Origin: Candidatus Bathyarchaeota archaeon
Lineage (GTDB): Archaea; Thermoproteota; Bathyarchaeia; Bathyarchaeales; Bathycorpusculaceae
Length of the DNA: 64,000 nucleotides
Reading direction: 5' to 3'
Assembly: GCA_963775685.1 (NCBI GenBank)
Contig: CAVZJV010000014.1
Coordinates: forward strand, 32,001 to 96,000
Below the pieces are notes generated by a model. The model was not told the origin of the DNA. It did not search any database and was given only the letters and a program-made list of their open reading frames with translations. Positions 9,424 to 58,005 of this stretch are shown here, in pieces. Position 1 is the first letter of the stretch, and each line of letters opens with the position of its first letter. A program made the translations under genes and the position numbers.

Positions 9424-9473
9424 AATGACTAAAAAATCGAACAAAATCATCGCCAATGGGGCCACTGGAAATG

Positions 9474-9552: not shown

Positions 9553-9632
9553 ATGTCCATGCTTTTTCGCTAGATGACGGTCCTACTATCTTCGTGGAGA
9601 TGCTGCGACCGCATTGAATTATTGCCCGTTGT

Positions 9633-40925: not shown

Positions 40926-40978
40926 AAACAACAATTTCCCTATTTCTTTTTTTTAGTTACAAGCACAGAAAAAATGTG

Positions 40979-41072
40979 GACTGAATAGCTCTGAATAAAT
41001 CTAACGTTGAAGCTGAATGAAAGAGGTTTTGCATTTGCTCTTTTCTCCTAAAAGCCGGAGTCTCAGCAAACC
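40979..41072 (+). repeat. Second copy of the conserved downstream stem element
   Basis: CTGAATAGCTCTGAATAAA...TCTTTTCTCC...CGGAGTCTCAGCAAACC. Confidence 0.55.
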
Positions 41073-41134
41073 CATGATTCTTCAGCAAAAATGTTCTTTG
41101 AACCCGTTTTTTAAAGCATAAAAGTGTACTGGTA

Positions 41135-41149
41135 GGATTTGAACCCAGG
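41135..41149 (-). repeat. tRNA T-arm fragment identical to 9488-9502
   Basis: GGATTTGAACCCAGG 15/15 match. Confidence 0.55.
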
Positions 41150-41377
41150 CGAAAGTGGAGATATCACCCGAAGACTTAACTATTAATTTGTTTTTTGAAT
41201 AATATGATGTACCGTTTATAAGTGTGGTTTTTCAGGAAAAATAGCTTCGTAACGCTCCTAAAAGTAACAACTATTCTGAAGCGTGTGCGCTATCAAATAT
41301 CAGCATTAGAATTGTGAAGTTCGCCAATTCTGCAGTTTGCATTTCCGAAGCAGGCAGAAATTTTGCTAAATATAGAA

Positions 41378-41574
41378 TTAGGTGGTAGGTCTCTGGGTTT
41401 TGAGCCCGTTGACAAACTCTAAATCAGCTCTCGCGCGCTCCAGTTTCTTTAAGGCTTTTTTCTTGAACGTGTTACGTTGGGTGTTTCCATCTTTAGCTTG
41501 CGAGCAATTCTGTAATCGGTCGCTCCGTCTGCTTTCAAATGTAGGATTTTCCATTCGCGCTCAGTCAAAGTCAA
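41378..41574 (-). pseudogene. Small Tfx/sigma70-r4-like HTH protein, frameshift in an A-run (not in ORF track)
   Basis: MTLTEREWKILHLKADGATDYRIARKLKMETPNVTRSRK/ALKKLERARADL. Confidence 0.7.
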
Positions 41575-41669
41575 GACTAACAGGTCTCCTTTTTACCTTC
41601 CGCGCCTTTCTCATCACCGAAAAATGCTCTCTCCCAATCTTGCCTCCATTGCCCACTCCATGAAAAAAT

Positions 41670-42005
41670 TCAGCAGGTCGCCATTTGACTATAGTAATCA
41701 ACAAAATTAACGGGCAAACACACATTCAGTCTCCTCAGCAAACGCTTATAATTAAGACGAACTGAAATCATGCTAACACCGCAAGACTTAGCCAACCTAG
41801 ACTGGGTCGCCTTCTCTTCTCTAAAAACGCATGCAATATACAGTGCAGCCGCCGCTAACGCAGGAGGGCTACGACCGCCAGTAGGCCTAAAACGTCTAGC
41901 ATCCTTCAAAACCTCCTTTGCCAACCTTACCGAAGCATCTGAAAGGCTAAGGTCTTTGGCAATTTCGTCAGCCAACCAATAATAGTCAGCCCTAGGCAAA
42001 CCCAA
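41670..42005 (-). CDS. Stand-alone TFB/TFIIB C-terminal cyclin repeat
   Basis: GRSPPALAAAALYIAC...TQSRLAKSCGVSMISVRLNYKRL. Confidence 0.85.
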   Translation of the reverse strand: MGLPRADYYWLADEIAKDLSLSDASVRLAKEVLKDARRFRPTGGRSPPALAAAALYIACVFREEKATQSRLAKSCGVSMISVRLNYKRLLRRLNVCLPVNFVDYYSQMATC

Positions 42006-42666
42006 ACCCTAAACCTCCCTTTTTAGATGTTTCTATGTCCCCAGATCTATTACTTAGTAAATCTCTATTGTAGTTGCCATAGACTTCAAACGCAAACCTA
42101 GTCAATGTCCACTTATGCCCGCGCTTTTCAAACAGCAGCTTGCAAGTTTCAAAATGAAGTTTCTTATTCAACCGCACCAAACGGCGAGCGACATCGTAAC
42201 GCTTCAAAGCATAACCGCCCCGCTTGTTTACCTCTGCAGCCACATCTTTGGGTAAGGAGCCATTCACACCGACTTCAAGAAGCCTCTGCAAGATTTCTTT
42301 GTCGACTGCATCCATAGCCGCAAAGTGCACAAGGTCCTCTTTGGAGTAGTCAGCCTCACCTATCCGATCCAGCTTATTGCGAACCCACCGCATTTCCGTC
42401 TTAAGGTCCTCAATTCCCTCTAGAGCGGACTTGAGCAAATGCTGATTCCACTTATGGCGACCTACTTTTTGTGCTTGGCTACGCCTTTTCTTAGGCTTTT
42501 CTGCAACTTGCATATGGGTTTGAACAGCTTTTTCCTCTAAACCTTGTTTGTTTTGTTCAGTCAAGACATTTCGCTCCATCAACAATAACAAGAAAACGGT
42601 GTCCGCAATCAGGGCTAACCGGTACCAAAAAACCCAAACCTGAAAGCATGGAAAAAGACCATACAA
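41992..42666 (-). CDS. Coiled-coil plus winged-helix protein (start probably ~42579)
   Basis: DKEILQRLLEVG...LPKDVAAEV...LFEKRGHKWTLT. Confidence 0.65.
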   Translation of the reverse strand: MYGLFPCFQVWVFWYRLALIADTVFLLLLMERNVLTEQNKQGLEEKAVQTHMQVAEKPKKRRSQAQKVGRHKWNQHLLKSALEGIEDLKTEMRWVRNKLDRIGEADYSKEDLVHFAAMDAVDKEILQRLLEVGVNGSLPKDVAAEVNKRGGYALKRYDVARRLVRLNKKLHFETCKLLFEKRGHKWTLTRFAFEVYGNYNRDLLSNRSGDIETSKKGGLGFGFA

Positions 42667-42782
42667 TAAGACGGCTAAAACACCCCCTAAAAACGTTTGA
42701 ACAACCTTTCACTGACAAAAGGGCATTCTGTGGAAACTTAAAGGCTCCTGTAGACGTCAGGGAGGCTATTTGGCAGGCAATC

Positions 42783-43736
42783 TTAAGCAACATAACTCTT
42801 ATCTCCTGAGCTTTTGTTGCCCGCTTGTCTGTCAGGTTCAACCTGGATAAGGTTAGACAGAAGCCCTGTTATCTTTGCAAGGGCTAAAGCGTTTTTGTCC
42901 CCGCTCTTTTCTAGGCGTTCAAGCTTTTCTAAAGCGCCATCGATAACTTCAGTGAAGCTGGCGATAACTTCAACTGCATCTGGATGTGTCCGGTCGCCAA
43001 CTTTTATCACGATGCCGTGGCTCTGTTCAAAATCGCGAATCACCATGTACGGCAACCGCTCTCCAGAACTGTAAGGAAAATGGCCGCTCTTTGGTCGAAT
43101 CCGCTCCAGCACCGGATTTAGAATCTTGAAGTCCGTTAGTAATCCAGTGTTAACAAAGGCGTCACAGAAGAGCTGCTTAGCCTTCCCCAGATTGCCCTGA
43201 CGTCGAACATGCAAAGTTACATTGCCGCTTTCAAACCAAACCACGCGACCAAGCTTGCATTTCCAAACAAAAAAATGTTTCTTCGCCTTGCTAGGCTTCC
43301 AGCCAAACCCAACGCCTCGCTTTTCAATCTCAGATTTAACAACCTGCCGCAAAGACTGACTTATTGGCTGATCGAGCTTTACTTTGGCTTTGAAGCAGTG
43401 GAAGTTTGAACACTTTGAACCTCGTTCATTTTTGTAGTAATACTTCCATTCCCACTTGGTTTTAGAGACGTAGTTGTGGTAGTGTTTATAGTCTATTTCT
43501 AAGAGTTTGCAGATTTGTTTGGGTGTTAGCAATGGGTTAGTTTGGCCTTCGCCGTCTAGGAGGTCAAAGATTTGTTTGCGCAGATTATTACTATTACTAC
43601 TCTTACTGTAAGAGTGCAAGGTGCCTGCAGTGGTAGTCGGTTGGTTAGCCAAAAAAACTACCTCCAAGCTTGCTCCTTTTTGTTTTTTAGCTTTTCGAGG
43701 CGAGTTGGGCAGTTTCCCACATCTTTGGGTTTTCAA
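42783..43736 (-). CDS. N-terminal HTH protein of mobile element (possible replication protein)
   Basis: LRKQIFDLLD..LTPKQICKLL HTH, long basic domain, C-terminal coiled coil; function is inference. Confidence 0.6.
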   Translation of the reverse strand: MKTQRCGKLPNSPRKAKKQKGASLEVVFLANQPTTTAGTLHSYSKSSNSNNLRKQIFDLLDGEGQTNPLLTPKQICKLLEIDYKHYHNYVSKTKWEWKYYYKNERGSKCSNFHCFKAKVKLDQPISQSLRQVVKSEIEKRGVGFGWKPSKAKKHFFVWKCKLGRVVWFESGNVTLHVRRQGNLGKAKQLFCDAFVNTGLLTDFKILNPVLERIRPKSGHFPYSSGERLPYMVIRDFEQSHGIVIKVGDRTHPDAVEVIASFTEVIDGALEKLERLEKSGDKNALALAKITGLLSNLIQVEPDRQAGNKSSGDKSYVA

Positions 43737-43932
43737 AAATTCTTGGGGGACAAAACGTGTTATCTGCTAAACAATACCGTCCCTCGCAGATAGGGTAAAT
43801 TAAGCTTCCAACAAAGTCACAGCAAGACTTAGCAATATCCTGATTTTTTGCTGGAGATGGAATGTTAACTTTTGACTTAGAAGCAAAGCGATTTTCTCGA
43901 TTAACGTCCCAAAGAGGTCTCCACTCAGTCAT
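43687..43932 (-). CDS. Small Cys-containing hypothetical protein
   Basis: GGAGG RBS, directly after the upstream stop. Confidence 0.5.
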   Translation of the reverse strand: MTEWRPLWDVNRENRFASKSKVNIPSPAKNQDIAKSCCDFVGSLIYPICEGRYCLADNTFCPPRIFENPKMWETAQLASKS

Positions 43933-44076
43933 TTAAGGCTCCTCCGTCTCGACTTCAAGCAAGGCTCTTTTGGTGATTTCTGCAAGCTCATGATAGTTAG
44001 CATTAAAATTAATAGCTAAGCCAGCAAGAAAAATCCTAATCATAATTGCCGCAGCCTCAATTTCTTTCTGCTTCAA
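43933..44076 (-). CDS. 47-aa hypothetical protein (not in ORF track)
   Basis: GGAGG then TTG; MKQKEIEAAAIMIRIFLAG...EEP*; TAA abuts the next ATG. Confidence 0.55.
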   Translation of the reverse strand: MKQKEIEAAAIMIRIFLAGLAINFNANYHELAEITKRALLEVETEEP

Positions 44077-44126
44077 CTATGAAACCTCCAAGCTGCTACA
44101 AAGAAAAAAAATGAAAGTTAGCGAAA

Positions 44127-44345
44127 TTAAGAGGGATCTGAAAATCTTAGAGCGCAGTCTCTGCAGAAATATAGCTGAATTACACCGGATGGCACATGGC
44201 TTTTTCCATTTTTCCAATTCTTTGTGCTTCCGCACCCCGGGCACTTGACTATTTTGTTGCTTGTTGTGTTCTGTTTTTCCCAAAGATCTTTTGAAATTAT
44301 TTTGCCGCAGTGAGGACAGTTTAATAATTTTTTCATTCTTTTCAC
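44127..44345 (-). CDS. Stand-alone Zn-ribbon protein homologous to the integrase N-terminus
   Basis: CPGCGSTKNWKNG...IQLYFCRDCALRFSDP. Confidence 0.8.
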   Translation of the reverse strand: MKRMKKLLNCPHCGKIISKDLWEKQNTTSNKIVKCPGCGSTKNWKNGKSHVPSGVIQLYFCRDCALRFSDPS

Positions 44346-44466
44346 CTTCTGCCAATTTTCGTCTCAGAGGTCTTTTACAAAAAGAAAAAAGGGAAGAATC
44401 TGCAGAAAAGTGAGAATTGTACATCGCCACCCTGATGGTTCCGAATGACTCCAGCTGAAACTTATT

Positions 44467-44484
44467 CCATGCTAGACGACGGCC
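44467..44484. repeat. att-like direct repeat of the tRNA-Pro 5' region
   Basis: Identical to 9533-9550; adjacent CCATGCTT also shared. Confidence 0.85.
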
Positions 44485-44858
44485 ACATTTGCCCCATGCT
44501 TAACTTTTAGGGTTCAGAGTTTTTCAATACATCAAGTAAACTTAAAGCTTCTGGAAAAGCCAGATCACCTTAATATGCGCCTTCCTATAAAAACGCTAAA
44601 ACAAGGGAACTGCAAAAGCGCGATGAGCTTCTTTTTAACAAAGTTAAAACAAGCCAAGATAAAAAAAAACAAAAAGGATTTGTTAGATATTCATAACCAA
44701 CTGTGTTAAAACGCTTAATATGATACTTGTCCATTCCTGATTTGTGTGTTGTTGTCTCTACACAGTCACGTATGTTAATACGGCCATGTTTCTAGATATT
44801 TCCAGTAAGTCAATCAGTTACTTGGGTCTCTGATAATTTTGGTTTGGAGGTGATTTTC

Positions 44859-45023
44859 ATTACGGAAAAAAATAAGAAAGGGGTGTTTGTCGCTGAGCAG
44901 AAGAAAAAGAGACGCGAAATAATTCAAGAAGGTAAAAAGCAAGTGGCTATTCCGCCAGATGTTGGAGATGTAGAAAAGAAGGCTTTAGCCCAAACAGGCG
45001 ATGATGCAACTTCAGGATGGTGA
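44859..45023 (+). CDS. Small charged peptide ending TSGW (ATT start, or GTG at 44883)
   Basis: GGAGGTGA RBS, open frame ...KALAQTGDDATSGW*, T-rich terminator after. Confidence 0.5.
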   Translation: MTEKNKKGVFVAEQKKKRREIIQEGKKQVAIPPDVGDVEKKALAQTGDDATSGW

Positions 45024-45182
45024 AAAGAATCTGTTTAAAGATCCACTCTTTTTTAATTTCTTATGACAATCAGTCCATAATCATTACCATTTTATTACAT
45101 AAAACCACAATTTAACTAATTTTTTTTAGATACACAAAACTTTTATTGCCATAACAACAAATCTTAGCAGGAGGTTTAGCGC

Positions 45183-45440
45183 TTGGAAGAAGTTATAATT
45201 GAAATAGGGCAAGTCATACATTTCTTCTCAAAAATCAACGTTGCCATAGTCGAATTAACGTTGCCCCTCTCCATCGGCGACCGCATCCTCATAAAAGGTC
45301 CCTCAACAGATTTTGTCCAAATCGTTACTTCGATGCAGATAGATCGCAAAGAAATTAAAAGAGCCGAAGGCGGACAAAGTGTAGGATTGAAGACGATTCG
45401 GCAGCCGCGGGAAAAAGACGTTGTTTATAAGCAACTTTAA
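45183..45440 (+). CDS. Translation elongation factor-like beta-barrel protein
   Basis: IGQVIHFFSKINVAIVEL...GDRILIKG.STDF.Q.V.SMQID. Confidence 0.8.
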   Translation: MEEVIIEIGQVIHFFSKINVAIVELTLPLSIGDRILIKGPSTDFVQIVTSMQIDRKEIKRAEGGQSVGLKTIRQPREKDVVYKQL

Positions 45441-46567
45441 GGTATGATTTCAGCGCCGTTATATTTTAGGTAATCAAAGTCTTTTATCCCAACGGTTCCT
45501 TTCCCTATTAGTCTTCGGATACGTGGAACTTCGCTTGCTACCGCTTTGATTAGTTGTTCTACTGTGTAGCAAACTTTATTGTACGCATCGTTACTCCAGC
45601 GTTTGGCTATGTTTGTGTAGAGGCATCTGCCGCCGCAAATATCTAGAATTTTGCAATCCACACAGGGTTTTTCGTTAACAAAGATTTTTTCAAGTTTCAA
45701 AGGGTTGGTATCTTTTATGTGCCCAAGATAGTATTCTTTCATCCCCCACATTGTTGGGCATGGAATAATGTATCCGTCAGTTTGGATAGCGTAATTTATC
45801 CAGCCGCCTCCGCAACGCAGCAAGCAATCTTTTTCTTCATGTAAAAGCGAGTTGGCTATGCCCAAAATTGGGTAGAGCTTAAGCACAGTGCCCTCCTCTT
45901 GGATTTGGTCAACCCAAAAATGCACCAGCTTCTCAATGCCTGGAATGTAGCTGGTTTTGGTCCACTCTTCAAAGTTGCGTCTTTGATAGTCATTGCCCCA
46001 AAAACCAGCATTCAGTTGCCAATGAATCGAAGTAAACGAAAAATCAGGGTTATCCAGGAGATATCTGACTTGTTTTTCTATGTCGGTTTGCTCCATTATG
46101 GTCATGCGAGCAATCAATTCTCCAGCAAACCCATTTTTCCTGATTAATTTTAGGTTGTTGACGACGTTCTGGTAAGTTCCTGCCCCGCGGTAGGCATCCG
46201 TTAAAGTTTCTTGTCCATCAATAGAGACAAGGATGGTGTGGAAACGGTTAACGTATTTTGGCTCCAGTTTGTCAAGAAGTAAACCGTTTGTTTGCACCAT
46301 GTACTGTTTAGGTGATACTTTATCCATGATTTGCCTAAGCTTATCTATCTGCAGCAGTGGTTCTCCACCATAGAAGGTCAAAACGCAATCAGGGTCCTGG
46401 CGGCAGAACTTATCAAGCAGCGCTAAATCGTAGCTGAGCCTACGTGGCAAATCATAATCAACTTCAATGTCGTCGCCAAAGTCCTCATCGAAATCATCAA
46501 GGCTCTCGCCAAAGCAGTATTTGCACTGCAGGTTGCAGTCACTTGTCAATATGACATGGAAGAACAT
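45437..46567 (-). CDS. Radical SAM/SPASM protein (AF0577-like putative peptide-modifying family)
   Basis: CNLQCKYC, GGEPL, CGGG...GYIIPCP, CVDC...CGGRC SPASM cysteines. Confidence 0.88.
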   Translation of the reverse strand: MFFHVILTSDCNLQCKYCFGESLDDFDEDFGDDIEVDYDLPRRLSYDLALLDKFCRQDPDCVLTFYGGEPLLQIDKLRQIMDKVSPKQYMVQTNGLLLDKLEPKYVNRFHTILVSIDGQETLTDAYRGAGTYQNVVNNLKLIRKNGFAGELIARMTIMEQTDIEKQVRYLLDNPDFSFTSIHWQLNAGFWGNDYQRRNFEEWTKTSYIPGIEKLVHFWVDQIQEEGTVLKLYPILGIANSLLHEEKDCLLRCGGGWINYAIQTDGYIIPCPTMWGMKEYYLGHIKDTNPLKLEKIFVNEKPCVDCKILDICGGRCLYTNIAKRWSNDAYNKVCYTVEQLIKAVASEVPRIRRLIGKGTVGIKDFDYLKYNGAEIIP

Positions 46568-46591
46568 GCTTTAGATGAGCACATGGGTTGT

Positions 46592-47905
46592 TTAATAGTA
46601 TTTTTCTGCAAGTTCCTCAGCTTTCTTATATTCTTCACTTTTTTCTTGCTCGGGCTTGTTCTTTTGATGTTTCTTGGTTTTTTCCTCTTCGTTCTGAGCA
46701 ATTCTCTGAGCCTTCTCAATATACTTTTTCAGCTCCATATCTTTCATGCGTTTTTCAGGCAAGGTTTCAGGCGCATACAGCAAGGGTAAGACAGCTAAGA
46801 AAAGAAATACGCTTGCAAAAGAGAATATGGGTATTTGACTTATGTCAGGTACATAGAATGCAAAAACTTTGGTTAGGAAACTGGAGAATACATAAGGTAA
46901 AGCGCCTAAGAAGTATAATTTATCGCTGTTTCTGGCTTGAGATAGGTCGCCCCATATTATGAGCAGAAATACTATATTGAATATTCCCCATGCAATTCCG
47001 TCTGATACCACGTAAAAGTATCCAGCCAAGTTTATATCTGGAAAAAGTCCTAAGATAGCATATCCGATTCCTAACATAATGAAGCCTACAATCGTTAAGC
47101 GTTTGCGACCGAAAAGGTCAGCAACAAATCCGCATGTGACAGCAGTGACTGCCATAATGATGTTTTCTAAAACGTAAATTAGAAAATTGTAAGTTGGACC
47201 AGATCCTAAAAGGTGGTTCTGAATTGGAACCGTCATATAATTTACAAGGGACACCATACACCATGAAACAAAGTAGAAAATAAACGACCTGTTAGACAGA
47301 ATATCTTTGAATTTAACCTTGTAAGTTTCTTTGCTACTTGGTTCTTCCACATTAAATCCACAAAAGACTAAAAATCCAAATAATCGTATAGCGGAAAGAA
47401 CGACGCAAGCTAAAACAACATCGCTTATTATAAATGCGCCAAGCACAGAGAAAAGCAAGCCCATTAACAGAAGAGTAATCCCGCTAATTTTTGCACGGTT
47501 CTCTACCATAGTGTGGCTGGAGAAATACCCCATAACTACAGGCATTCCGACTCCAAAATAGGCTCCAAAAACACTTGAAATCACAAGAGTGCCAGTTACG
47601 CTTGATAGATCCATTGCGAGAGGTAGAAATGAAAGAAAAACACCGCTTAACATCCATAAACTGAGGAAGTTAGTTCGTTTTTTTAATTTGTCAACTGCAA
47701 ATGAACCTACGAATGCTAAAATTGCTATTGAAACTGCGTTCACGCCAAAAACGATAAGTGTTAAGGGGCCAGTATTCGGATCTATTTTATCCGTTAGAAT
47801 CTTGAGGGTTTTGAAAACTAGCAAATACCAAACAAAGGCGTTTCCTACTAAGAAAACATTTGTCGTAGTTAGTTTTAGAGTTGGCTTAACATCTCCCAGA
47901 GGCAC
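46592..47905 (-). CDS. MFS transporter-like protein
   Basis: ~12 TM, GFVADLFGRKR motif A, PET plus charged tail. Confidence 0.88.
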   Translation of the reverse strand: MPLGDVKPTLKLTTTNVFLVGNAFVWYLLVFKTLKILTDKIDPNTGPLTLIVFGVNAVSIAILAFVGSFAVDKLKKRTNFLSLWMLSGVFLSFLPLAMDLSSVTGTLVISSVFGAYFGVGMPVVMGYFSSHTMVENRAKISGITLLLMGLLFSVLGAFIISDVVLACVVLSAIRLFGFLVFCGFNVEEPSSKETYKVKFKDILSNRSFIFYFVSWCMVSLVNYMTVPIQNHLLGSGPTYNFLIYVLENIIMAVTAVTCGFVADLFGRKRLTIVGFIMLGIGYAILGLFPDINLAGYFYVVSDGIAWGIFNIVFLLIIWGDLSQARNSDKLYFLGALPYVFSSFLTKVFAFYVPDISQIPIFSFASVFLFLAVLPLLYAPETLPEKRMKDMELKKYIEKAQRIAQNEEEKTKKHQKNKPEQEKSEEYKKAEELAEKYY

Positions 47906-48050
47906 TTGCTGGACATCCTTAAAGTTGTAACTTTCTAGGTGTTTTTGATAATTAAGTATTAAGGATTGGTAAAATTGATTTGAAATATAGTTTATGTAGG
48001 TAACCTTTTAAGCATATTTGTACAACACATCTACTTCGAGGAAGGTTGCT

Positions 48051-48095
48051 ATGAAGGCAAACAACAAAGTAACTCGTTCAAGTGGATGGGTTTAA
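48051..48095 (+). CDS. 14-aa micro-peptide MKANNKVTRSSGWV (candidate prenylated-Trp precursor)
   Basis: TTTTAAG TATA-like box at 48006, GAGGAAGG RBS, same SSGWV end as 49182-49241. Confidence 0.7.
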   Translation: MKANNKVTRSSGWV

Positions 48096-49108
48096 GAAAA
48101 CCCGTTCGCAAAAAAAGCAAAGGGAGCGGAAAGCAATATTTTTAGCTCCTCCCATTTTTCTTCTTCTAAGCTTTTCTGTAAGATCCCAACAATACAATTA
48201 GCTGATACGTTTAATTCTTCAAGAAATTCCTGAACTTCAGGGGTCTCAAAAACTAAATCGATTATTTTTTCTTGTGCAGAATTATCAGATAAGTCCTGGC
48301 TCAAAAGAGGAAGAAGCATCTTTCTAGTTTGCAAATTCTGCAACGCATAGATTAAAGGTAAAGGTAGGCATCCATTTTTCAGCCGATTAGCCACTTCCAA
48401 AGGGTCAAAAATGTCTGCGCACTCATCAGATACAAGCGAAACAACCCCGTAACTTCTACCAAATTCACCTAACTCTTCCACCAAATCTTGTTCTGCCCCC
48501 CCAACGATGGCACCGATTTTCATAGTTAATTCAGGAACAACTGCCTTCAACCTGATTATGTCATAAAATTCATTTGGAGACAAATCCAACCGAGCTTTCA
48601 AGCTAGCCTCTAAGGTTTCTGCCATGGAAATCTCCAATATTGCCTCAGATATCAAACTTCTAATTTGCTTGCCCTGACCTTTGGGAAGCTTATCGCATTC
48701 ATTATGCAATTGCGTTAACCCTTCAGCCAAAAGAATGTCGCCAGCTAATATTGCTGCGGTTTCGCCGAATTTGCCAAAGACAGTTGGCTTGGGACCTTTA
48801 AAGGTTGACTTATCGATAACGTCATCGTGTAAATCAGCGGCTCCAGTTATTAGTACGATTGCTTTTCCAAAAGGAATTGCCTGTTTAACGTTTCCTCCTA
48901 CTGCTTTGCATGAGATGACTATAAGTGCAGGAAAAACAGGCATGGTGTTATGAAGAGTTATTTTTGAGAAGTGCCTTAGTGATTGAGAAATAATGCTCTT
49001 GTCTTTGTTTGCTGAGATTATTTGCTGTCTCGCTTGTTTTAGGGCAAGACCACCGTTTTCCCTAAAAATCTTTTTCATTTTCCGAATTAGAGCCTGATTG
49101 GAGGGCAT
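48092..49108 (-). CDS. Divergent polyprenyl-synthetase-fold prenyltransferase (ComQ-like candidate)
   Basis: FARM HDDVID, AILAGD, LK retained; SARM is DECAD; GKxxR and RRG motifs absent. Confidence 0.85.
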   Translation of the reverse strand: MPSNQALIRKMKKIFRENGGLALKQARQQIISANKDKSIISQSLRHFSKITLHNTMPVFPALIVISCKAVGGNVKQAIPFGKAIVLITGAADLHDDVIDKSTFKGPKPTVFGKFGETAAILAGDILLAEGLTQLHNECDKLPKGQGKQIRSLISEAILEISMAETLEASLKARLDLSPNEFYDIIRLKAVVPELTMKIGAIVGGAEQDLVEELGEFGRSYGVVSLVSDECADIFDPLEVANRLKNGCLPLPLIYALQNLQTRKMLLPLLSQDLSDNSAQEKIIDLVFETPEVQEFLEELNVSANCIVGILQKSLEEEKWEELKILLSAPFAFFANGFS

Positions 49109-49181
49109 TTGTATCAGGGTTTAATTGTTTTGAGTAAATATTTGGTTTTTGGAAAAAAATGAGGCGTTGGAAAGGGTTTTT

Positions 49182-49241
49182 TTATACCCATCCCGATGAG
49201 ATTGGTTTACCGCGGATATTTTTGCCATTTTTGCTTACCAT
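49182..49241 (-). CDS. 19-aa micro-peptide MVSKNGKNIRGKPISSGWV (candidate prenylated-Trp precursor)
   Basis: GAGGTGA RBS 6 nt before ATG; between the protease and prenyltransferase genes, same strand. Confidence 0.75.
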   Translation of the reverse strand: MVSKNGKNIRGKPISSGWV

Positions 49242-49266
49242 ATTTTTTCACCTCACATTTGCTAAT

Positions 49267-50118
49267 TTAATTTAAGAAACTTTGTATCCAGGTTAAGATA
49301 CTCTGTGTATCTATCCTAGTGTGATATGTTATTCCTGCACAGTTTGCATTACGTACGTACGCGTTAATGGCAAGGACAATGTCTTGAGTGCCGCCGTTAT
49401 AGATTACTGGGCCGCCTGAGTCTCCAAATGCCACGCCGCCTTTGCCTTGGCTGGGGTTGGCTGTTAATTTGAGGTATTTGTCACTTCCAGCAAAGTTCCC
49501 AGATACTATTTTGGCTTGTGCGGAGTTGCATGATAATGTTCCAACCAACGAGTTAACAACGCCGTTGTCTTTGGGAGTCGCTTGGAATTGAAGACCATAA
49601 CCTACCTCCTTCAAGATAGTTTTATTATCCAACATATCAGAGAAACCTGCTCGAGGTAAAGCTGGAAAATCTTCAACACCTGCAACTGCTTGAACAAGTT
49701 TTATTAATCCTATGTCGCTTGTTTCAAATTCGTTATTGCCTGAAAAAGAGGGGTTATACAGCGGATAGATTATTGGAAAACCATCATAAATTGTATTTGC
49801 ACCATAATAGGTGATTTTTCCCTTCTCAAGAGTATAGCTAATTGGTCCCTTATCAAAACAAACGCTGACTGCTTGCACACCGACCAGACTGTGACCTGCC
49901 GTCACCATAACTGTTGACGAAATCAAGAAGCCTGAACAATAACCAATCGGGTTAGTTTTCGCTTCGTCACTAAAAAGCACGACTACCCCAGTATACGGAG
50001 TTGAATCTGGGCGAATGTTTCCTGTTATTCCGTATACTGTGCCAGTAAATAGAGCCAAAGATGCCAAGATTGGCAGGATGGTTAACGTGATAGCTTTGGT
50101 TGTTTTCAAATTATCCAC
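49267..50118 (-). CDS. Secreted trypsin-like (S1) serine protease
   Basis: Signal peptide; CSG, TAGH, DIGL, GDSGGP triad motifs. Confidence 0.9.
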   Translation of the reverse strand: MDNLKTTKAITLTILPILASLALFTGTVYGITGNIRPDSTPYTGVVVLFSDEAKTNPIGYCSGFLISSTVMVTAGHSLVGVQAVSVCFDKGPISYTLEKGKITYYGANTIYDGFPIIYPLYNPSFSGNNEFETSDIGLIKLVQAVAGVEDFPALPRAGFSDMLDNKTILKEVGYGLQFQATPKDNGVVNSLVGTLSCNSAQAKIVSGNFAGSDKYLKLTANPSQGKGGVAFGDSGGPVIYNGGTQDIVLAINAYVRNANCAGITYHTRIDTQSILTWIQSFLN

Positions 50119-50274
50119 CTTATCTGACTTACACTTGTATCGTAAGACGTAATATATAAACGTCCTGTGTAAGATGCCTCAGCCGAGCAATGCCCAACAA
50201 AACGACAGTCCAACACAACTACACATGCCAGCAAGCAAAACTCTTAAAAGCCAAAGCTATAATCACAAGGTTTC

Positions 50275-53157
50275 ATGAGCCAAACCAAGCAAATAGAGCA
50301 GAAATGGCGAGAGAAATGGGAAGCCGCCCACCTTTTCGAAGCTGACCCTGACCCGAAAAGACAGAAAAAGATGGTAACCTTTCCCTACCCATATATGAAT
50401 GGCCCATTGCACGTTGGACACACTTTCACAGCTTCACGAGTGGATGTTTATGCTCGGTTTAAACGTATGCAGGGTTACAATGTACTTTGGCCTTGGGGTT
50501 GGCACTGGACAGGTCAACCTTTGCTTGGAGCCAGTCAACGCGTAGCCCGGGGTGATGAAGCATTCATTAAAGTCTTAAGAGAAATCGATGGAGTGCCTGA
50601 GTCGGAACTCAAAAAATTCGTTGACCCTCTCTACATGGCTCAATACTACACAAATGAAGGTCGAATAGCTGTCAAAAATATCGGGTTTTCAGTAGATTGG
50701 CGACGCGAATTTACTTCCATAATGCCAACTTACCAGAAGTTCATAGAGTGGCAATACAAGAACCTTAAAGAAAAAGGCTACGTTACACGTGGCACACACC
50801 CAGTGGTTTGGTGCCCTAAAGACAAGAGTCCAACAGGAGACCATGACCGCCAAAGCGGCGAAGGTATCACCGCCGAAGAATACACACTAATAAAGTACAA
50901 GCTAGATGAAAAAACGTTTTTGCCAGCAGCAACTTTCCGTCCCGAAACCATCTATGGCATTACTAACCTGTGGATTAACCCCGATGCAGTCTATGTGGAG
51001 GCATACGTTAACGGCGAAAAATGGATCGTCAGCCAAGAAGCAGCAGATAAACTCAAAGAGCAGGAAAGAAAAGTTGAAGTAAAACGCAGTTTTCAAGGCA
51101 AAGAACTCATAGGCAAATGGTTTGAGAATCCAATCACAAAACTCAAGTTTCCTATCTTGCCCGGCTGGTTTGTCGACCCTAAAACCGCGACTGGCGTGGT
51201 GTACAGCGTTCCAGCCCATGCACCCTACGATTGGTTAGCGCTTCGAGACCTACAGCTGAAACCCGAAGTCCTTTCACAGTTCGGCATGGGCCCTGACGAA
51301 GTTATGCAAATTAAGCCTATCTCAATTATCAAGGTGGAAGGATATGGCGAGTTTCCAGCAGTTGAAATCGTTGAGAAAATGGGCATAAAAGACCAAAACG
51401 ACCCTAAAGCTGACCAAGCCACCAAAGAACTGTACAAAAAAGAATTTCACGGTGGCGTGCTGAAACCCAATTGTGGACCATACGCTGGAAAAACTATCCG
51501 AGAAGCCAAAGACATTTTGATAGTTGACTTCCTCAAACTTGGCGTAGCAGACTTCATGTATGACTTAGCTGAACCCGTAGTTTGCCGCTGCATGACGCAA
51601 TGCATCGTAAAAATTCTTTCTGACCAATGGTTCCTAAACTACTCTGATCCTGAATGGAAAGAAAAAGCCAAAGAAGTTGTCGCACAAATGACGATTTATC
51701 CCGATTCCGCAAAACAGAACTTCTATACTGTTATTGATTGGCTTCGTGAGTGGGCTTGTGCAAGAACCACGGGTTTTGGAACTCCGCTCCCGTGGGGCAA
51801 AGGTTGGATAATTGAAACGCTCAGTGACTCAACTGTGTATATGGCCTTTTACACAATAAACAAGCATATAAAACAGAACAACATTAAAGCTGAATTGTTG
51901 ACACCAGAAGTTTTCGATTTTCTTTTCTACGGTAAAGGCAATGCAAACGAACTTGAAATCACTACTGGATTAAGTGCCAATTTGCTCAATGACATGCGAA
52001 CTGAATTTCTTTACTGGTATCCGTTTGACTTGCGAAATTCTGCAAAAGAACTCGTACCAAACCACTTATCCTTCTGTATTTTTCACCATGCTGCGCTTTT
52101 CTCACCTGAACACTGGCCCAAAGCAGTAGGCGTTAATGGTATGCTTATGATTGAAGGACAAGGAATGCACAAGAGCAAAGGAAACTTTATAACAATGAAA
52201 GGTGCCGTGGAAAAATACGGTGCTGACGCAACGCGCTGCGGATTGCTGTTAGGCGCCGAAGGCATGGATGATCCCGATTGGCGTGCTGAAAACGTAAGCG
52301 ACTTGCAAAGTAAGTTTGAGGCATTAATTGGGTTTACAAGCGGCATAATAGCTTCAGCCAAAAACCTGGAAGAATCGGACCTAGAACGGTGGCTTACTAG
52401 TAAGATTCAATATCGAATAAGAGAGGTCACCGCAAGCTTAGATGTACTTAAAACCCGAACTGCCCTGCAAGTGGCGTTGTTTGAGACTTGGAATGATCTG
52501 CGCTGGTACATCCAACGAAAAGGCAATACAGAAGCCAAAGCGCTGGGTGATGCGGTGAAGGTTTGGTTAAAGATGCTTACGCCTTTTGCGCCGTTTATTT
52601 GCGAGGAGCTTTGGAGCCAAACTGGCGAAGAAGGATTTATCAGTATTGCAAAGTGGCCAGTCTTTGATGCGGGCAAGCTTGATGTAGCCGCTGAAGAGCA
52701 GGAGACTCTAATTACAGATCTAATGACTGACACAACAAACATCGTAAAAGCCACGAAGATATCGCCAAAACACATATGTTTCTATACGGCTGCACCATGG
52801 AAATGGCAAGTTTACCTCAAAATCATAGACAAAACTATTGTTGGCGAAGTAAAAATCAACGAGTTAATGAAGGAATTCGCCGCCGACAAAGACCTAAAAC
52901 CACGCATGAAAGACATAGCGGCCATGGTTCCAAGAATCACTAAGGCTTTAACTAAAGTTTCATGCGAACGCAAATCCAACATGAAGCAAATCAAAGTGAT
53001 CAATGAGCAGGCGATTTTGAATAGTGCTGTGGCGTTTTTGGGACAACGCTTCGCTGCTAAAGTAACCATTTTTAGAGAAGATGACATCGAACGTTTTGAC
53101 CCAAAGAAACGTGCAACGATGGCTATGCCGTATCAACCAGCAATCTACATCGATTAG
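50275..53157 (+). CDS. leuS: Leucine--tRNA ligase (archaeal type)
   Basis: FPYPYMNGPLHVGH, ATFRPET editing domain, ETLSDST, GMHKS (KMSKS equivalent). Confidence 0.96.
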   Translation: MSQTKQIEQKWREKWEAAHLFEADPDPKRQKKMVTFPYPYMNGPLHVGHTFTASRVDVYARFKRMQGYNVLWPWGWHWTGQPLLGASQRVARGDEAFIKVLREIDGVPESELKKFVDPLYMAQYYTNEGRIAVKNIGFSVDWRREFTSIMPTYQKFIEWQYKNLKEKGYVTRGTHPVVWCPKDKSPTGDHDRQSGEGITAEEYTLIKYKLDEKTFLPAATFRPETIYGITNLWINPDAVYVEAYVNGEKWIVSQEAADKLKEQERKVEVKRSFQGKELIGKWFENPITKLKFPILPGWFVDPKTATGVVYSVPAHAPYDWLALRDLQLKPEVLSQFGMGPDEVMQIKPISIIKVEGYGEFPAVEIVEKMGIKDQNDPKADQATKELYKKEFHGGVLKPNCGPYAGKTIREAKDILIVDFLKLGVADFMYDLAEPVVCRCMTQCIVKILSDQWFLNYSDPEWKEKAKEVVAQMTIYPDSAKQNFYTVIDWLREWACARTTGFGTPLPWGKGWIIETLSDSTVYMAFYTINKHIKQNNIKAELLTPEVFDFLFYGKGNANELEITTGLSANLLNDMRTEFLYWYPFDLRNSAKELVPNHLSFCIFHHAALFSPEHWPKAVGVNGMLMIEGQGMHKSKGNFITMKGAVEKYGADATRCGLLLGAEGMDDPDWRAENVSDLQSKFEALIGFTSGIIASAKNLEESDLERWLTSKIQYRIREVTASLDVLKTRTALQVALFETWNDLRWYIQRKGNTEAKALGDAVKVWLKMLTPFAPFICEELWSQTGEEGFISIAKWPVFDAGKLDVAAEEQETLITDLMTDTTNIVKATKISPKHICFYTAAPWKWQVYLKIIDKTIVGEVKINELMKEFAADKDLKPRMKDIAAMVPRITKALTKVSCERKSNMKQIKVINEQAILNSAVAFLGQRFAAKVTIFREDDIERFDPKKRATMAMPYQPAIYID

Positions 53158-53361
53158 TAATCCTTCATAGAAAGGTTAACTCATCTAAATGAATAAATAG
53201 ACGAAAATTAATGCTAACAGTTTTTCGGCATCAGAACACGTTGAATATAATTGCTGGCGGCCTAAATTGCTTTTTGGGCCACTTGCTTCGCATAGGCAAA
53301 GCCTAACGTAAACAGAATATAACCCAGGATAGTCGTAAACTGCTCATAGAATGTTGAGCTC

Positions 53362-53769
53362 TTAATGGCTCACTCTAGCGGGTTCTTCATGGTTCTTAAG
53401 CTTCTCTTCTAAAAGAACCAGCAATTCCTGAGGTTTCACGGGCTTAACCAAATAAGCGTCTGCGCCTTCATCAAGAGCTTTAACGCCAGTTTCAAGTGAC
53501 GGGAACCCCGTAATCATTATTTTGACGGTGTGTTGGAGTTGCTTTTTGAGTTTCGCTAATAACTCGGTGCCATCCATATCCGGAAGTCTGATGTCTACCA
53601 ACGCTAAGTCAAAATGGTCGTTTCCCGCTTTTTCTATGGCTTCTTTACCTGTTTCCGCAGTTTCAATCTCATAACCGCTTTTTTGGAGAATGCGTGTGAA
53701 GGTTCGAAGTATTGATTTGTCATCGTCAACAACAAGTATTGTTTTTTTATGTGCAGCCAATTCTAACAT
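53362..53769 (-). CDS. Single-domain response regulator
   Basis: ILVVDDD, LVDIRLPDMDG, ITG, YLVKP. Confidence 0.92.
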   Translation of the reverse strand: MLELAAHKKTILVVDDDKSILRTFTRILQKSGYEIETAETGKEAIEKAGNDHFDLALVDIRLPDMDGTELLAKLKKQLQHTVKIMITGFPSLETGVKALDEGADAYLVKPVKPQELLVLLEEKLKNHEEPARVSH

Positions 53770-54029
53770 ACCTCTTTTCCATAAATCCCGCTTTTTTGAA
53801 CCTCGTATGTCAAAAAAGCCACCAACTTCTCTGCATCAACAAACCATAATAACAGTTGGTTTGCTATCAACAAAGAACTTCCTATCTTTTTAGCTGTTTC
53901 TAACAATGTTTTCCGAGATTAATAAACGCTATCCCATCTGGATTATTTGAAGGCAGCCCTGTTAACAATAAAGTTATAACTGAGAAAAACCAAAATGTAT
54001 TAGCGAATAGTTGGTTTTGAGGCGCAAAG

Positions 54030-55490
54030 GTGTCTGCTCCATTTTCTTACGAAATAAAAACTGATGTTCCCCCACTCTACTTTGGGAAACTATTTGACTT
54101 CATTTATACACAATTCCTTGCTCCTCAAAAGCAAAGATTCACAAGCTTATCTAAAGAGATAGCACAGTTAAGGAACAAAATCTCATACGTTGTTCTCGAT
54201 ACACAAGGGAGACAAATCCTTAAAGTTGAAGTAATTGCCACAGACACTGTAAATGCAACTATAACACCATTGGAAATGGATGTTCTGGAAGCAACAGTCA
54301 ACGAAGCAAGACAAGATTTACTAATTGCTACAGAATTGTTTCAGGAAAAAGCCCGCAAAGTTACATGGTATTTTGCGTGGCGAGAGGGAGAAGAAATCAT
54401 ACCTGAAAAAGTAACGCTTCACGAAAAAAGTTTCAACCGCCTTTTCTTGGAAACACAAGTCCTATTAACTTTTGTATTTATTGGGCTCGGACTGGGGTTG
54501 TTTGTTGTTGTGTTAACTTTTTATCCAGCCTACTTCTGGTCTGTCCCAATAATTTTAATTGTTTCCCAATTCGTATTTGTTTTCTATTCTAACAAGATTA
54601 TTGCACGGTCGGGTGATTGGTCAATCACTAAGGACAGCCCTATCATACACTTCTTAGAGTATCAGCCTCCAATTGGCTCTTTGGGCACGCTTGATGATTA
54701 CAAGCAAATTCCGCCCGAGCAGTTGGTGGCATTAAAGAAAGAAGTCTACGAGGAAATAATAGCGAAGCATGGGGCAATTGACTGTCAGGAAGCAGAAAAA
54801 ATCTTTACAAAATATAATGTATCTTGCAAACTTGGCAGTTTATCAGCCAAGAAAATCAACGTTTATGAACTTGTAAAGAAAGTCGCTGATCGCTTCGGGT
54901 ACAAAGTGCCTAAAATCGTGATTTCAAATACGATGGTTCCTAACGCGGCCGCTTCTGGTCCGAGCCCTAGCCGAGGCATCGTTTTGATAACGACTGGGCT
55001 ACTTGTTCAGTTGGAAGAGCCTGAAGTCGTAAGCGTTTTGGGGCATGAGTTTGGGCATCTTAGAGGCAGAGACCCTCTAATTTTGTTTGGGCTGTTGAGT
55101 GCGGAGTTTCTGTTCAGGTTTTATGTTTTGCTTGCTTTGCTTCCATTCATATTCACATCTTTCTTGTTCTTTGTCTACTTCTTCGCGGTCATGACTCTTA
55201 TATTCTTCATAGCGAAATTCTTTGAAGCCCGCGCAGACCTAACATCAGCCATAATGATGGGGCAACCCAAAGTCATGGCAAGATCATTGGAAAAAATCGG
55301 GTTCCACAGGCTTCTTTTCGAGCGAACTCCAAGTTTCCGCCTGCAAGAATGGGTTGGTTTAGATTCGCACCCGCCTATTTACTTTAGAGTGGCCCGATTA
55401 GAGAAGCTTGGAGATGATCAGGTTAAATATCCACTGCTTCAATCAATCGAAGATGTAATAAAAGGATTTTTTGCTACCCTAAAAAGTTAA
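54030..55490 (+). CDS. M48 (HtpX-like) membrane zinc metalloprotease with N-terminal extension
   Basis: PNAAASG, ITTGLL, HEFGH, EARAD, SHPP..R. Confidence 0.88.
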
Positions 55491-55699
55491 AAACCATAGT
55501 AAAAAAACAGACGAAAATCGAACCTGGACCAAATTTTCTACCCCAATTGAACAACCGAAGTCCAGCTTGTAAACACAACCGGTACTCTCCATTGAATCGT
55601 AGGATAAGATTGACAGGATTCTTTTCCTGAAGGAACAAGAATTTAACGCAAAAAATAATAACCTAACCGAGTAAGCTCTAACGAGACGAGGCAAACAAT

Positions 55700-56977
55700 T
55701 TGAAACTAATCTTCGTTGCAATAGACGGTATGGGCGATTTACCTATCGAATCTTTAGGTAACAAAACTCCTCTTGAAGCAGCAGAAACTCCCAACATGGA
55801 TGCGCTTGCCAAGGCGGGAAAAACTGGTTTAATGTATTCGGTCAAGAAGGGTGTCGCGCCTGAGAGCGATGTTGCTGTTATTTCACTTTTAGGCTATGAC
55901 CCCTTCAAATACAGCACAGGCAGAGGTGTCATCGAAGCATCTGGCGTTGGCTTGAACATGCAGGATGGAGATTTAGCGTTGCGTTGCAATTTTGCTACTT
56001 TAGGCGCGGGCAAAACTATTCTTGACCGACGAGTAGCTCGAACTCTGAGCACAGAGGAAGCGAATGAGCTAACTGAAGCCGTCAACAAAGAAGTGAAACT
56101 CAACTCATACCCAGCCACTTTTGAGTTTCGCAATACTTTGGGCCATAGGGCTGTTTTGCTCATTAAGAGTAAAGCTAAACCGCTATCAAGCAACATAACC
56201 AACAGCGATCCCGCCTACATAATAGTTAACGGCATTGGCGAAGCCAAATCAGATGTCGAGATGGTGCTTAAAACTTGTGAACCAACCGAAAAAACAGAAG
56301 CCGCGAAAGTCTCCGCCAGGTTGGTTAACGAGTTTATCGAAAAGTCACATATATTTTGGGAAAATCATCCTATTAACGTAAAGCGTGCCGCGGAAGGCAA
56401 ACTCAAAGCAAACGTAGTTTTGACCCGAGATGCGGGGCACTTGCTTCCTAAATTCTTCAACATAAACGAACGCTACCATGTCAACTTTGCCTGCTTAGCG
56501 GACATGCATGCTGAGCGCGGAATCGCTCAACTGGCTGGTATGGAGTCGTCGCTGCTTCCGCCTCCATCAGGAAATTTGCAGAAAGACTGCGAAGTCAGAG
56601 TAAAAGCCCTCCTTGAAGCCCTGCCAAAACACGATTGCTTCTATATTCACCTCAAAGGACCCGACGAACCAGGACACGATGGCAACTGCAACTTAAAAAC
56701 CCAGATCATCTCTGCTATCGACAAGTACTTCTTTGGTCCATTGCTTAAACAGATATCTTTAGAAGACAACCTCCTTTGCATAACCACTGACCACGCGACG
56801 CCCTGTACCTTGAAAGTTCACAGTGATACACCCGTTCCGATGCTCATCTCAGGCGACCACGTTAGCAGCGGCAAAACAGACAAGTTCTGCGAGAAAGAAT
56901 GTGCAAAAGGCAGCCTTGGCACTCTAGAACGCGGATGCGAATTAATGCCAAAACTCATGCAGATACTAAAAAAATAA
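55700..56977 (+). CDS. apgM: 2,3-bisphosphoglycerate-independent phosphoglycerate mutase
   Basis: IDGMGD, KTPLEAAETPNMD, PESD, HLKGPDEPGHDG, TDHATP, HS. Confidence 0.92.
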   Translation: MKLIFVAIDGMGDLPIESLGNKTPLEAAETPNMDALAKAGKTGLMYSVKKGVAPESDVAVISLLGYDPFKYSTGRGVIEASGVGLNMQDGDLALRCNFATLGAGKTILDRRVARTLSTEEANELTEAVNKEVKLNSYPATFEFRNTLGHRAVLLIKSKAKPLSSNITNSDPAYIIVNGIGEAKSDVEMVLKTCEPTEKTEAAKVSARLVNEFIEKSHIFWENHPINVKRAAEGKLKANVVLTRDAGHLLPKFFNINERYHVNFACLADMHAERGIAQLAGMESSLLPPPSGNLQKDCEVRVKALLEALPKHDCFYIHLKGPDEPGHDGNCNLKTQIISAIDKYFFGPLLKQISLEDNLLCITTDHATPCTLKVHSDTPVPMLISGDHVSSGKTDKFCEKECAKGSLGTLERGCELMPKLMQILKK

Positions 56978-57138: not shown

Positions 57139-58005
57139 ATGATTCAGCGTCTTATGGTTTATTCTGATGGTGGTGCAAGAGGTAACCCTGGGCCGGCAGC
57201 CATTGGTTTCGTAGCTTTAAATGAACAAGGTGAAATTGTAAAAGCAGATTCAAGATTTATAGGCATCCATACCAACAACCAAGCGGAATACGAAGCGCTT
57301 CTTTTGGCTATGCAGTTTGCAGTTGAGGTTGGTGCGGAAGAAGTAGTTTGCCACCTTGACAGCGAACTTGTTGTGAGGCAGCTAAACGGCCAGTACACCG
57401 TGAAAGACCCAGAACTGCAACGACTTTGGAGGAAAGTGGGGCAAATGAAAGGGTGCTTTAAAAAAATCGGGTTTGCTCACGTAGCCAGAGAACATGAAAA
57501 GATTCAAGTTGCGGACGAACTGGTGAATGAAACGTTAGACCAACAAACCAATCAACTCAAAGCCACCGGATTAGTAACAAGCCCTCCATTAGTTACTAGT
57601 AATTATGGGCTGAAAGTCATGTTTGTCCACATAAGCATTCGCACAAGCAACATGGAGCGGTCTATCAATTTTTACTCCAAGTTCTTAGGTTTAAAACTTC
57701 AAAGCCGCCGGGAAATCATGCAAACAAACGCTGAAATTGCCTTCCTGCAAGATGCAGAACACAAAGGTTGCACGCTGGAGTTGACTTATTACCGAAATCA
57801 GAAACAGTTTGTTCAACCTGAATATGAAATGCGACTGTTTGACCATTTAGGGTTCGAAGTCGCAGACATAAACAAAACACTCGATGCAATGCGCAGAGAA
57901 AACGTTTTGGTAACGGATAAACCCTTCAAGTTTAACGAAAAAACAACAATTGCATTTGTCGAGGATCCAGATGGGACCCTCATTGAATTGATTGAGCGCA
58001 AATAA
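57139..58005 (+). CDS. rnhA: Ribonuclease HI fused to a VOC/glyoxalase domain
   Basis: SDGGARGNPGP, TNNQAEY, DSELVV, ADELVN; HISIRTSNMERS..DHLGFEV..FVEDPDGTLIELIE. Confidence 0.85.
   Translation: MIQRLMVYSDGGARGNPGPAAIGFVALNEQGEIVKADSRFIGIHTNNQAEYEALLLAMQFAVEVGAEEVVCHLDSELVVRQLNGQYTVKDPELQRLWRKVGQMKGCFKKIGFAHVAREHEKIQVADELVNETLDQQTNQLKATGLVTSPPLVTSNYGLKVMFVHISIRTSNMERSINFYSKFLGLKLQSRREIMQTNAEIAFLQDAEHKGCTLELTYYRNQKQFVQPEYEMRLFDHLGFEVADINKTLDAMRRENVLVTDKPFKFNEKTTIAFVEDPDGTLIELIERK

Follow-up and report, generated by a model that had tools for sequence, protein, structure and literature searches.

What is known about enzymes with a trans-isoprenyl-diphosphate-synthase (trans-IDS) fold that prenylate peptides? 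The characterized ones all modify tryptophan, and a Gln one turn ahead of the SARM, conserved in ComQ, PalQ, ChrPC and Ord1, has been tied to indole recognition, as stated in the available part of a review (PMC13290415). Ord1 is described as catalyzing indole prenylation rather than chain elongation (PMC13290415; bioRxiv 10.64898/2026.08.29.745113; both as far as accessible). In StheX of Sphaerobacter, the second-last Trp carries the modification, and in a docking model Asp82 of StheQ lines the peptide C-terminus (accessible text of bioRxiv 10.64898/2026.08.29.745113). The pal cluster of Paenibacillus pairs an IDS-fold enzyme with a kinase (PMC10853753), and in a census running to 2013, comQXPA was confined to Firmicutes (PMC4008528), in both cases according to the accessible sections of these papers.

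Among the matches listed in our literature searches, which covered mainly freely accessible papers and their main texts, none described an archaeal ComQ-like or prenylated-peptide system, and nothing relevant appeared on TIGR04084/AF0577, on pseudo-IDS proteins or on GGPP and lipids in Bathyarchaeia. To our knowledge, whether and how archaea count their neighbors is largely open. Bathyarchaeia are abundant in sediment and hard to culture.

The locus described here lies in a 64,000-nucleotide stretch of DNA from a Candidatus Bathyarchaeota archaeon, analyzed over its whole length and called the window below. Its cassette comprises the following features:

45437..46567, minus strand: TIGR04084 radical SAM/SPASM protein, following the MFS gene at a distance of 24 bp, possible member of the system
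46592..47905, minus strand: MFS-family membrane protein (MFS_1), proposed peptide exporter or importer
48006-48012, plus strand: putative TATA-like box TTTTAAG of precursor A
48019-48035, plus strand: TGT-N3-ACA-N4-TAC, putative regulatory element upstream of precursor A
48038-48045, plus strand: putative Shine-Dalgarno-like sequence GAGGAAGG in the precursor A leader
48051..48095, plus strand: 14-aa precursor A, MKANNKVTR-SSGWV; its gene runs convergent to that of the enzyme and divergent from the MFS gene
48092..49108, minus strand: enzyme ORF, 338 aa, PF00348, trans-IDS fold, proposed peptide tryptophan prenyltransferase
49182..49241, minus strand: precursor B, 19 aa, MVSKNGKNIRGKPI-SSGWV, upstream of the enzyme
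49254-49248, minus strand: Shine-Dalgarno-like GAGGTGA of precursor B
49267..50118, minus strand: S1 (trypsin-fold) serine protease with a signal-peptide-like N-terminus and an intact His-Asp-Ser triad

We consider it likely that the enzyme is a peptide Trp prenyltransferase which makes a prenylated pentapeptide x-x-G-W-x, here SSGWV, with transport by the MFS protein and proteolytic release. The prenylated pentapeptide would most likely serve as a strain-specific signal.

A trans-IDS fold with an altered IPP site

In the domain search, the enzyme ORF at 48092-49108 matches PF00348, and its predicted structure (pLDDT 94) has the all-alpha trans-IDS fold. Among solved structures, 1wy0, a GGPP synthase from Pyrococcus, comes closest (Z 32.0, rmsd 2.7, 313 residues aligned), at about 20% identity in the structural alignment. 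No curated NCBIfam cutoff is reached; the top score, for IdsA, is 95.6 bits versus a cutoff of 468.

The IPP-binding motifs (IBMs) were taken as defined in Table 1 of PMC10108439, in the part of that paper available, and the residues of the enzyme were placed by alignment to 1wy0 and by their distance from the first FARM Asp. The FARM reads HDDVID (residues 94-99), and the Lys of RLKA is K188. At the position of GKxxRP (IBM-1) stands TMPVFP, with MPVFP at 56-60. In IBM-2, the Glu, His/Gln and Leu are replaced by Val85, Thr88 and Asp92. The RRG of IBM-3 corresponds to K104-G105-P106, the first Arg having become Lys and the second being lost. Toward the C-terminus, the Phe-Gln ahead of the SARM is Ser224-Leu225, the SARM itself is DECAD (228-232), a deletion has removed the post-SARM GK loop, and the C-terminus lacks a basic tail. 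In sum, IBM-1, -2, -3, -5 and -6 and the FQ ahead of the SARM are all altered: almost all IPP contacts have changed, and the metal and allylic-diphosphate side is retained.

An earlier note, made from the sequence of this stretch, had anticipated much of this. Its HDDVID FARM and RLKA Lys are present, with the His and Asp residues of the FARM and K188 invariant or nearly so among the 120 closest proteins, its MPVFP in place of GKxxRP is found at 56-60 with F59 in 120/120 of them, and DECAD is indeed the SARM. It had also read RRG as replaced by FKG; the loss of RRG holds, but the register was off by one relative to the true counterpart K104-G105-P106. The changes in IBM-2, on either side of the SARM and at the C-terminus go beyond its list. 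Alignment with an archaeal GGPP synthase, proposed there as a check and made here with 1wy0, bears out the replacement of the IPP motifs.

How widely are these changes shared? We considered a close set, the 120 best of 226 homologues, and a wider set of 147 representative rows from which one bacterial fusion was dropped. P57, F59, D92, H94, D95, D96, D99, K104, E238 and R242 occur in 120/120 proteins of the close set, K188 in 119/120 and G105 in 104/120. As the same residues are fixed across the 120 closest proteins, the IPP-motif changes are not the drift of a single gene. The metal- and diphosphate-binding residues are invariant despite an overall identity of 25-35%, with counts in the wider rows of 129/130 for D95, 128/130 for D96, 131/131 for D99, 137/141 for D232 and 138/141 for R242. 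The GK of IBM-1 is missing from all 112 wider rows scored, its Arg is retained in 48/114, and a loose DDxxD...RR pattern is matched by 6/147. Of 129 wider rows, 94 have D92; the SARM begins with Asp or Glu (Asn in 8/141); and Leu, Ile, Val and Thr predominate at position 225, where Gln is outside the seven commonest residues (143 rows).

By record labels and Atlas clusters, this conserved enzyme family belongs to the Bathyarchaeia. Two loci labelled bacteria (L014, L021) and one labelled Baldrarchaeota (L025) fall within the Bathyarchaeia on the enzyme tree, and the gene order of L014 matches Bathyarchaeia loci; these three labels are probably wrong. Plasmid and phage collections yielded only distant enzyme matches, at about 31% identity or less and none spanning 80% of the protein. 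A longer, fused form of the enzyme was not found, which counts as weak evidence.

Two mini-genes sharing one core

Our neighborhood comparison covers 44 loci, 43 fetched ones and the window. Enzyme and MFS gene are separated by about 150-260 bp, and within this gap an opposite-strand mini-gene is found, precursor A, whose stop codon in the window overlaps that of the enzyme. A peptide gene candidate accompanies 44/44 complete enzyme copies, 35 by a strict mini-ORF rule and 9 by eye. The strict rule matched 39/44 regions, versus a mean of 1.1/44 in shuffles, and 8/384 regions behind other genes; four of the 39 matches (L014, L035, L037, L038) turned out to lie in the wrong frame, and candidates chosen by eye took their place. 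A first, looser mini-ORF test (34/34 versus 16.9 shuffled) was discarded as too permissive. The candidates chosen by eye are at the usual place in L013, L014, L039, L041 and L042, upstream of the enzyme in L021, and between protease and MFS gene in L035, L037 and L038. The shifts of position and strand in the latter four are what one expects if the product acts in trans. A second filter, for TATA box, Shine-Dalgarno sequence and short basic ORF, is independent of the strict rule; it gave 40 matches, spread over 36 loci, in the roughly 54 kb lying no more than 300 bp from an enzyme end, whereas the other roughly 720 kb yielded 11, all unrelated. The TGT-N3-ACA-N4-TAC element occurs in 26/44 downstream regions versus 0.07 in shuffles, appears just once in the 64 kb window and is missing from the kinase-type loci described below.

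The precursors are 8-22 aa long, basic and devoid of a hydrophobic signal segment. Trp is second-last in 39 of the 44 candidates, third in 3 and fourth in 1, which is frameshifted; in the remaining one, Tyr replaces it. Two candidates are frameshifted at the start, L006 and the second copy in L005. Across the 39 rule matches, Arg is encoded by all six codons and Gly by three, and the stops are TAA in 20 and TAG in 19; this synonymous variety argues for selection on the peptide. Of two further explanations of the mini-gene, a cis-acting Trp attenuator was rejected, since precursor A is oriented away from the MFS gene and differs in position among loci, and a structured RNA found no support: no Rfam match was obtained in 40000-56000, and codon use indicates protein-level selection.

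Two side observations concern individual precursors. Apparent ATA or ACG starts follow a strong Shine-Dalgarno-like run at L005:7774-7815, L008:8163-8213 and relatives. The precursor at L039:11028-11096 (minus strand) terminates in Tyr-Val, not Trp-x, alongside a long-branch enzyme; judged by this ending, it is a possible tyrosine-prenylating variant.

Precursor B emerged from the second filter. It lies 25 bp after the protease stop and 73 bp ahead of the enzyme start, and its type turned up in 17 loci, among them 13 of the 16 that carry the protease; in the other three, a precursor lies directly behind the protease. We compared the 15 loci in which, by a fixed rule, both precursors end in G-W-x. 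An earlier version of this pair test had included chance upstream ORFs (11/21 with the same last residue) and was redone. The pentapeptide is identical between precursors A and B in 11/15 loci, and the variable core positions match in 41/45 cases, against a mean of 11.0 and a maximum of 28 in 200,000 permutations, which overstate independence because the loci are related. Different codons encode the matching residues in 7/14, 11/15 and 10/14 cases at the three positions, and 14 different cores are found among the 15 loci. The identity stops sharply at Trp-4, the sixth residue from the end (0/15): there, the A type has Arg in 15/15 and the B type Ile, Ala, Met or Val in 15/15, preceded by Pro in 13. 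The precursor leaders cluster by type, not by locus; therefore, the A/B duplication predates these genomes and the cores track each other at the protein level. From this we infer that the mature product is the pentapeptide, recognized by something strain-specific. The earlier note had named SSGWV, and both mini-genes flanking the enzyme in the window indeed terminate in it; its proposal of an acceptor other than IPP, as in ComQ, gains support from these two genes and from the co-variation of the cores across the 15 loci.

The protease occurs in 16/44 loci, in every one of which a precursor follows directly, and is broken in L012. In the window it lacks Asp189 and has Val at 216; Asp189 is missing in 16/16 proteases, and 216 is Val or Thr in 14/14 scored. 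S1 proteases with these features favor a small aliphatic P1 residue, which fits the junction of precursor B and not the Arg of precursor A. We thus propose the S1 protease as the processing enzyme of precursor B; an Arg-specific protease for precursor A was not found.

The cassette and its possible function

Which genes accompany the enzyme? The MFS gene is present in 38/44 loci. The radical SAM/SPASM gene, whose product scores 308 bits versus a cutoff of 225, is present in 29/44, with a gap to the MFS gene of 5-42 bp in 22 of the 28 loci measured; whether it is part of the peptide system is uncertain. In L008, L010, L013, L014 and L023, a membrane histidine kinase gene is found directly upstream of the enzyme. 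These five loci form one clade in the enzyme tree and hence count as a single event. MFS and kinase are mutually exclusive neighbors across the 44 loci; L027, which has neither, is cut by a contig end. The sensor domain of the kinase matches only unnamed or MASE-like bacterial clusters, and these matches show no link to ComP. The enzyme in the window has no adjoining histidine kinase gene, and a receptor gene was seen neither in the 38 MFS-type loci nor in the 64 kb window. LeuRS is encoded in 23/44 loci, a PadR-family protein in 7/44, and a cis-prenyl synthase in 2. In L005, two enzyme-MFS pairs coexist, the MFS gene having been duplicated along with the enzyme.

Further observations concern these neighbors. 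A geranylgeranyl-reductase-family gene lies inside the cassette in 3/44 loci (L029:8910-9953, L040:12537-13628, L043:9386-10477), where, going by its family, its product possibly saturates the prenyl chain. The divergent PadR-family gene pair found close upstream of the enzyme in L020, L026, L029, L030, L034 and L039 is a candidate for the regulator that acts at the TGT/ACA element. The C-terminal part of the MFS protein (window 46592-46750, minus strand) has a tail, APETLPE...R.L..Y...A, strongly conserved across 37 copies, and the homologue search returned 948 proteins for MFS as compared to 226 in the case of the enzyme, so that the larger family may be that of the MFS protein. Beside the cassette, at window 41670-44430, a cluster of small ORFs (a single TFIIB-repeat protein, a weak DUF7646 match, a zinc ribbon) looks like an integrated element. 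Elsewhere in the window are two adjacent tyrosine integrases (8500-10940) after several unannotated ORFs (1163-6546); three large beta-propeller proteins of PQQ type that are probably exposed at the surface (16026-18665, 19152-21755, 38049-40925); a PolX palm/thumb protein (22621-23205) and a small ATP-dependent DNA ligase (26716-27579), possibly an end-joining set; and a 288-aa ORF in which an RNase HI-like domain is fused to a glyoxalase/VOC domain (57139-58005, plus strand).

How might the cassette work? Mg at the FARM would ionize an allylic diphosphate, which is probably C15-C20 or longer, since the positions -5/-4 before the FARM are Ala-Ala. What captures the resulting carbocation would be not IPP but the indole at the second-last Trp of a short and basic precursor of ribosomal origin. 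Asp92 would occupy the site of the IPP tail, probably helping to position the C-terminal end of the peptide. As the Gln and Asn of ComQ-type pockets are missing, the acceptor chemistry must differ from the ComQ type. Having no hydrophobic signal peptide, the precursor would probably be exported via the MFS protein. Five residues from the end, precursor B would then be cut after Pro-Ile/Ala/Met/Val by the neighboring protease and precursor A after Arg by another protease, and the released product would be a prenylated x-x-G-W-x pentapeptide differing in sequence between strains. In favor of this prenyltransferase reading stand the invariant catalytic residues beside replaced IPP residues, the peptide gene candidate at every complete enzyme copy and its changes of place and strand, the core shared by two precursors, the precedent of Trp as acceptor, the kinase in 5 loci and the geranylgeranyl-reductase-family gene in 3. 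Several findings count against it: the conserved pre-SARM Gln is missing, the SARM starts with Asp/Glu rather than Asn, no receptor gene was seen in the window or at the MFS-type loci, the five kinase loci reduce to one event, the protease is present in only 16/44 loci, and none specific for Arg was found for precursor A.

We see an even chance that the Bathyarchaeia possess peptide quorum sensing of their own, with pherotypes. It would consist of an enzyme derived from a GGPP synthase independently of ComQ, a prenylated pentapeptide, two differently regulated precursors, the MFS protein, a protease of its own, and either a kinase or a receptor acting on TGT-N3-ACA. The modification in such a system might be geranylgeranylation, possibly followed in some lineages by reduction to phytanyl.

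The same chemistry could instead yield a weapon, a surfactant or a membrane-active lipopeptide, which we regard as unlikely, although our estimates for this use and for the prenyltransferase reading overlap. The cationic precursors, the efflux-type MFS neighbor and the lack of a linked receptor at most loci would suit such a product. Once the basic leader is removed, however, the core is short and mostly uncharged; it varies between strains and yet is matched between the two genes of one strain, implying a specific recognizer, and in one clade a sensor kinase adjoins the enzyme.

Less probable still is an unmodified, Phr- or arbitrium-like signal, processed outside and re-imported by the MFS protein, with the IDS-fold protein acting as its receptor or as a peptide-gated isoprenoid enzyme. 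A C-terminal pentapeptide cut from a short precursor is a Phr-like trait, as proposed for these precursors; the mutual exclusion of MFS and kinase would fit two modes of sensing, and the Gln that recognizes Trp is missing. Against this, the metal- and diphosphate-binding residues stay invariant at 25-35% overall identity, basic precursors of 8-22 aa with no hydrophobic segment require non-Sec export, a prenyl-chain reductase is part of the cassette in three loci, and the enzyme carries no DNA-binding or other output domain, the failure to find a fused form adding weakly to the latter point.

Could the radical SAM/SPASM protein link Arg to Trp in the R-x-x-x-W of precursor A, in the manner of streptide, besides or replacing prenylation? 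Lys-Trp cross-links in KxxxW are described in the accessible part of PMC13361665. R-x-x-x-W is found in 22/28 copies with a radical SAM gene nearby versus 0/12 without one, but this reduces to three independent pairs on supported branches of a quick tree, the sign test is not significant, and the radical SAM gene is perhaps a mere marker of the ancestral chromosomal site. Moreover, precursor B shares the core and never has Arg at this position (Ile, Ala, Met or Val in 15/15 pairs), for which reason the Arg of precursor A looks like a cleavage site. We hold such a cross-link to be quite improbable.

Very little probability attaches to an IDS-derived terpene synthase as in insects, or an allylic-diphosphate hydrolase, from which the MFS protein would export a free terpene or prenol, the mini-genes being unrelated. 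Loss of the IPP motifs with an aromatic residue, here Phe59, is the signature of the insect IDS-type enzymes (PMC10108439, accessible part), and disrupted IPP motifs with intact metal motifs, the terpene synthase criterion, are found here; this combination is shared by prenyltransferases and hence does not discriminate. A Trp mini-gene at every complete enzyme copy, its moving with the enzyme to new chromosomal sites and the co-variation of the precursors would all be left unexplained.

A divergent but ordinary GGPP or polyprenyl synthase, or a non-catalytic subunit of a heteromeric one, is the least credible reading, for although such synthases are the top sequence and structure matches and the IBM-1 Arg persists in 48/114 wider rows, the enzyme scores under all curated cutoffs (95.6 versus 468 bits for IdsA), its IBM-1, -2, -3, -5 and -6 and pre-SARM FQ are altered, neither a partner subunit nor a mevalonate-pathway gene is among the 54 recurrent neighbors annotated, and L005 holds two cassettes together.

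Comparison with known systems

Returning to the peptide prenyltransferase, what would follow from it? Each genome is given one concrete candidate molecule, prenyl-SSGWV in the present case, and one enzyme-substrate pair; the calculated masses are 534.24 Da for SSGWV and 806.49 Da for its geranylgeranylated form. By our prediction, a few hundred proteins that carry a GGPP or polyprenyl synthase label would be mis-annotated, a point that bears on reconstructions of lipid pathways. If active, the enzyme would represent a further, probably independent route from a chain-elongating synthase to a peptide prenyltransferase, and its different acceptor pocket, with Asp for Gln, and possibly long donors would be useful for peptide lipidation.

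Archaeal IdsA (PDB 1wy0), the top match by sequence, profile and structure, is likely the scaffold of origin; it differs from the enzyme in that the latter has the IPP-binding motifs replaced and small residues before the FARM. The insect IDS-type terpene synthases have likewise lost the IPP motifs with an aromatic substitution, but their products are free terpenes, and no peptide gene is linked to theirs. Ord1 (PDB 9v4g-j), a free-tryptophan farnesyltransferase, has the same fold and, of the solved structures, ranks second by sequence (E 1.4e-14); unlike the present enzyme it is bacterial, uses free Trp as acceptor and has Gln216 and Asp219. In the streptide-type KxxxW RaS-RiPPs, a basic residue stands four before Trp in every precursor, which is not the case here, as precursor B shows.

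The Paenibacillus system PalQ/PalX/PalP is closer, with an IDS-fold peptide Trp prenyltransferase, an Asp-containing SARM, a preference for Gly before Trp and a kinase in the cluster. However, PalQ has the Gln and requires a C-terminal Trp, and PalX has an NHLP leader, whereas here Trp is second-last (39/44) and the leader consists of few, basic residues.

The nearest parallels are Bacillus ComQ/ComX/ComP and Sphaerobacter StheQ/StheX, which share the trans-IDS fold, the intact FARM and a strain-variable core. As in both, a short gene adjoins that of the enzyme and encodes a Trp near its C-terminus (43/44 copies, Tyr in 1), second-last as in StheX. Asp92 matches Asp82 of StheQ by spacing, both being Asp three before the FARM (FARM-3), the role of Asp82 coming from the docking model in the accessible text. 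A membrane kinase next door, as in comQXPA, is found in 5/44 loci, all of one clade, and not beside the enzyme gene of the window. In contrast, ComQ and StheQ have a pseudo-SARM NDxxD where the present enzymes have D/E-E-x-x-D, the Gln one turn before the SARM of ComQ is Leu225 here, and StheX has 69 aa as compared to 8-22 aa. Further differences from comQXPA are the archaeal host, the two precursor genes with one core, one of them on the opposite strand with its own putative promoter, and the MFS protein and dedicated protease inside the cassette. No ComQ-named model is among the 23 families matched by 120 members, in a library that may hold none. The comparison with ComQ drawn in the earlier note is supported as regards the predicted ComQ-like working. 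The best reading of the sequences is that the enzyme would work like ComQ but stands outside the ComQ family, having neither the Gln nor the pseudo-SARM Asn.
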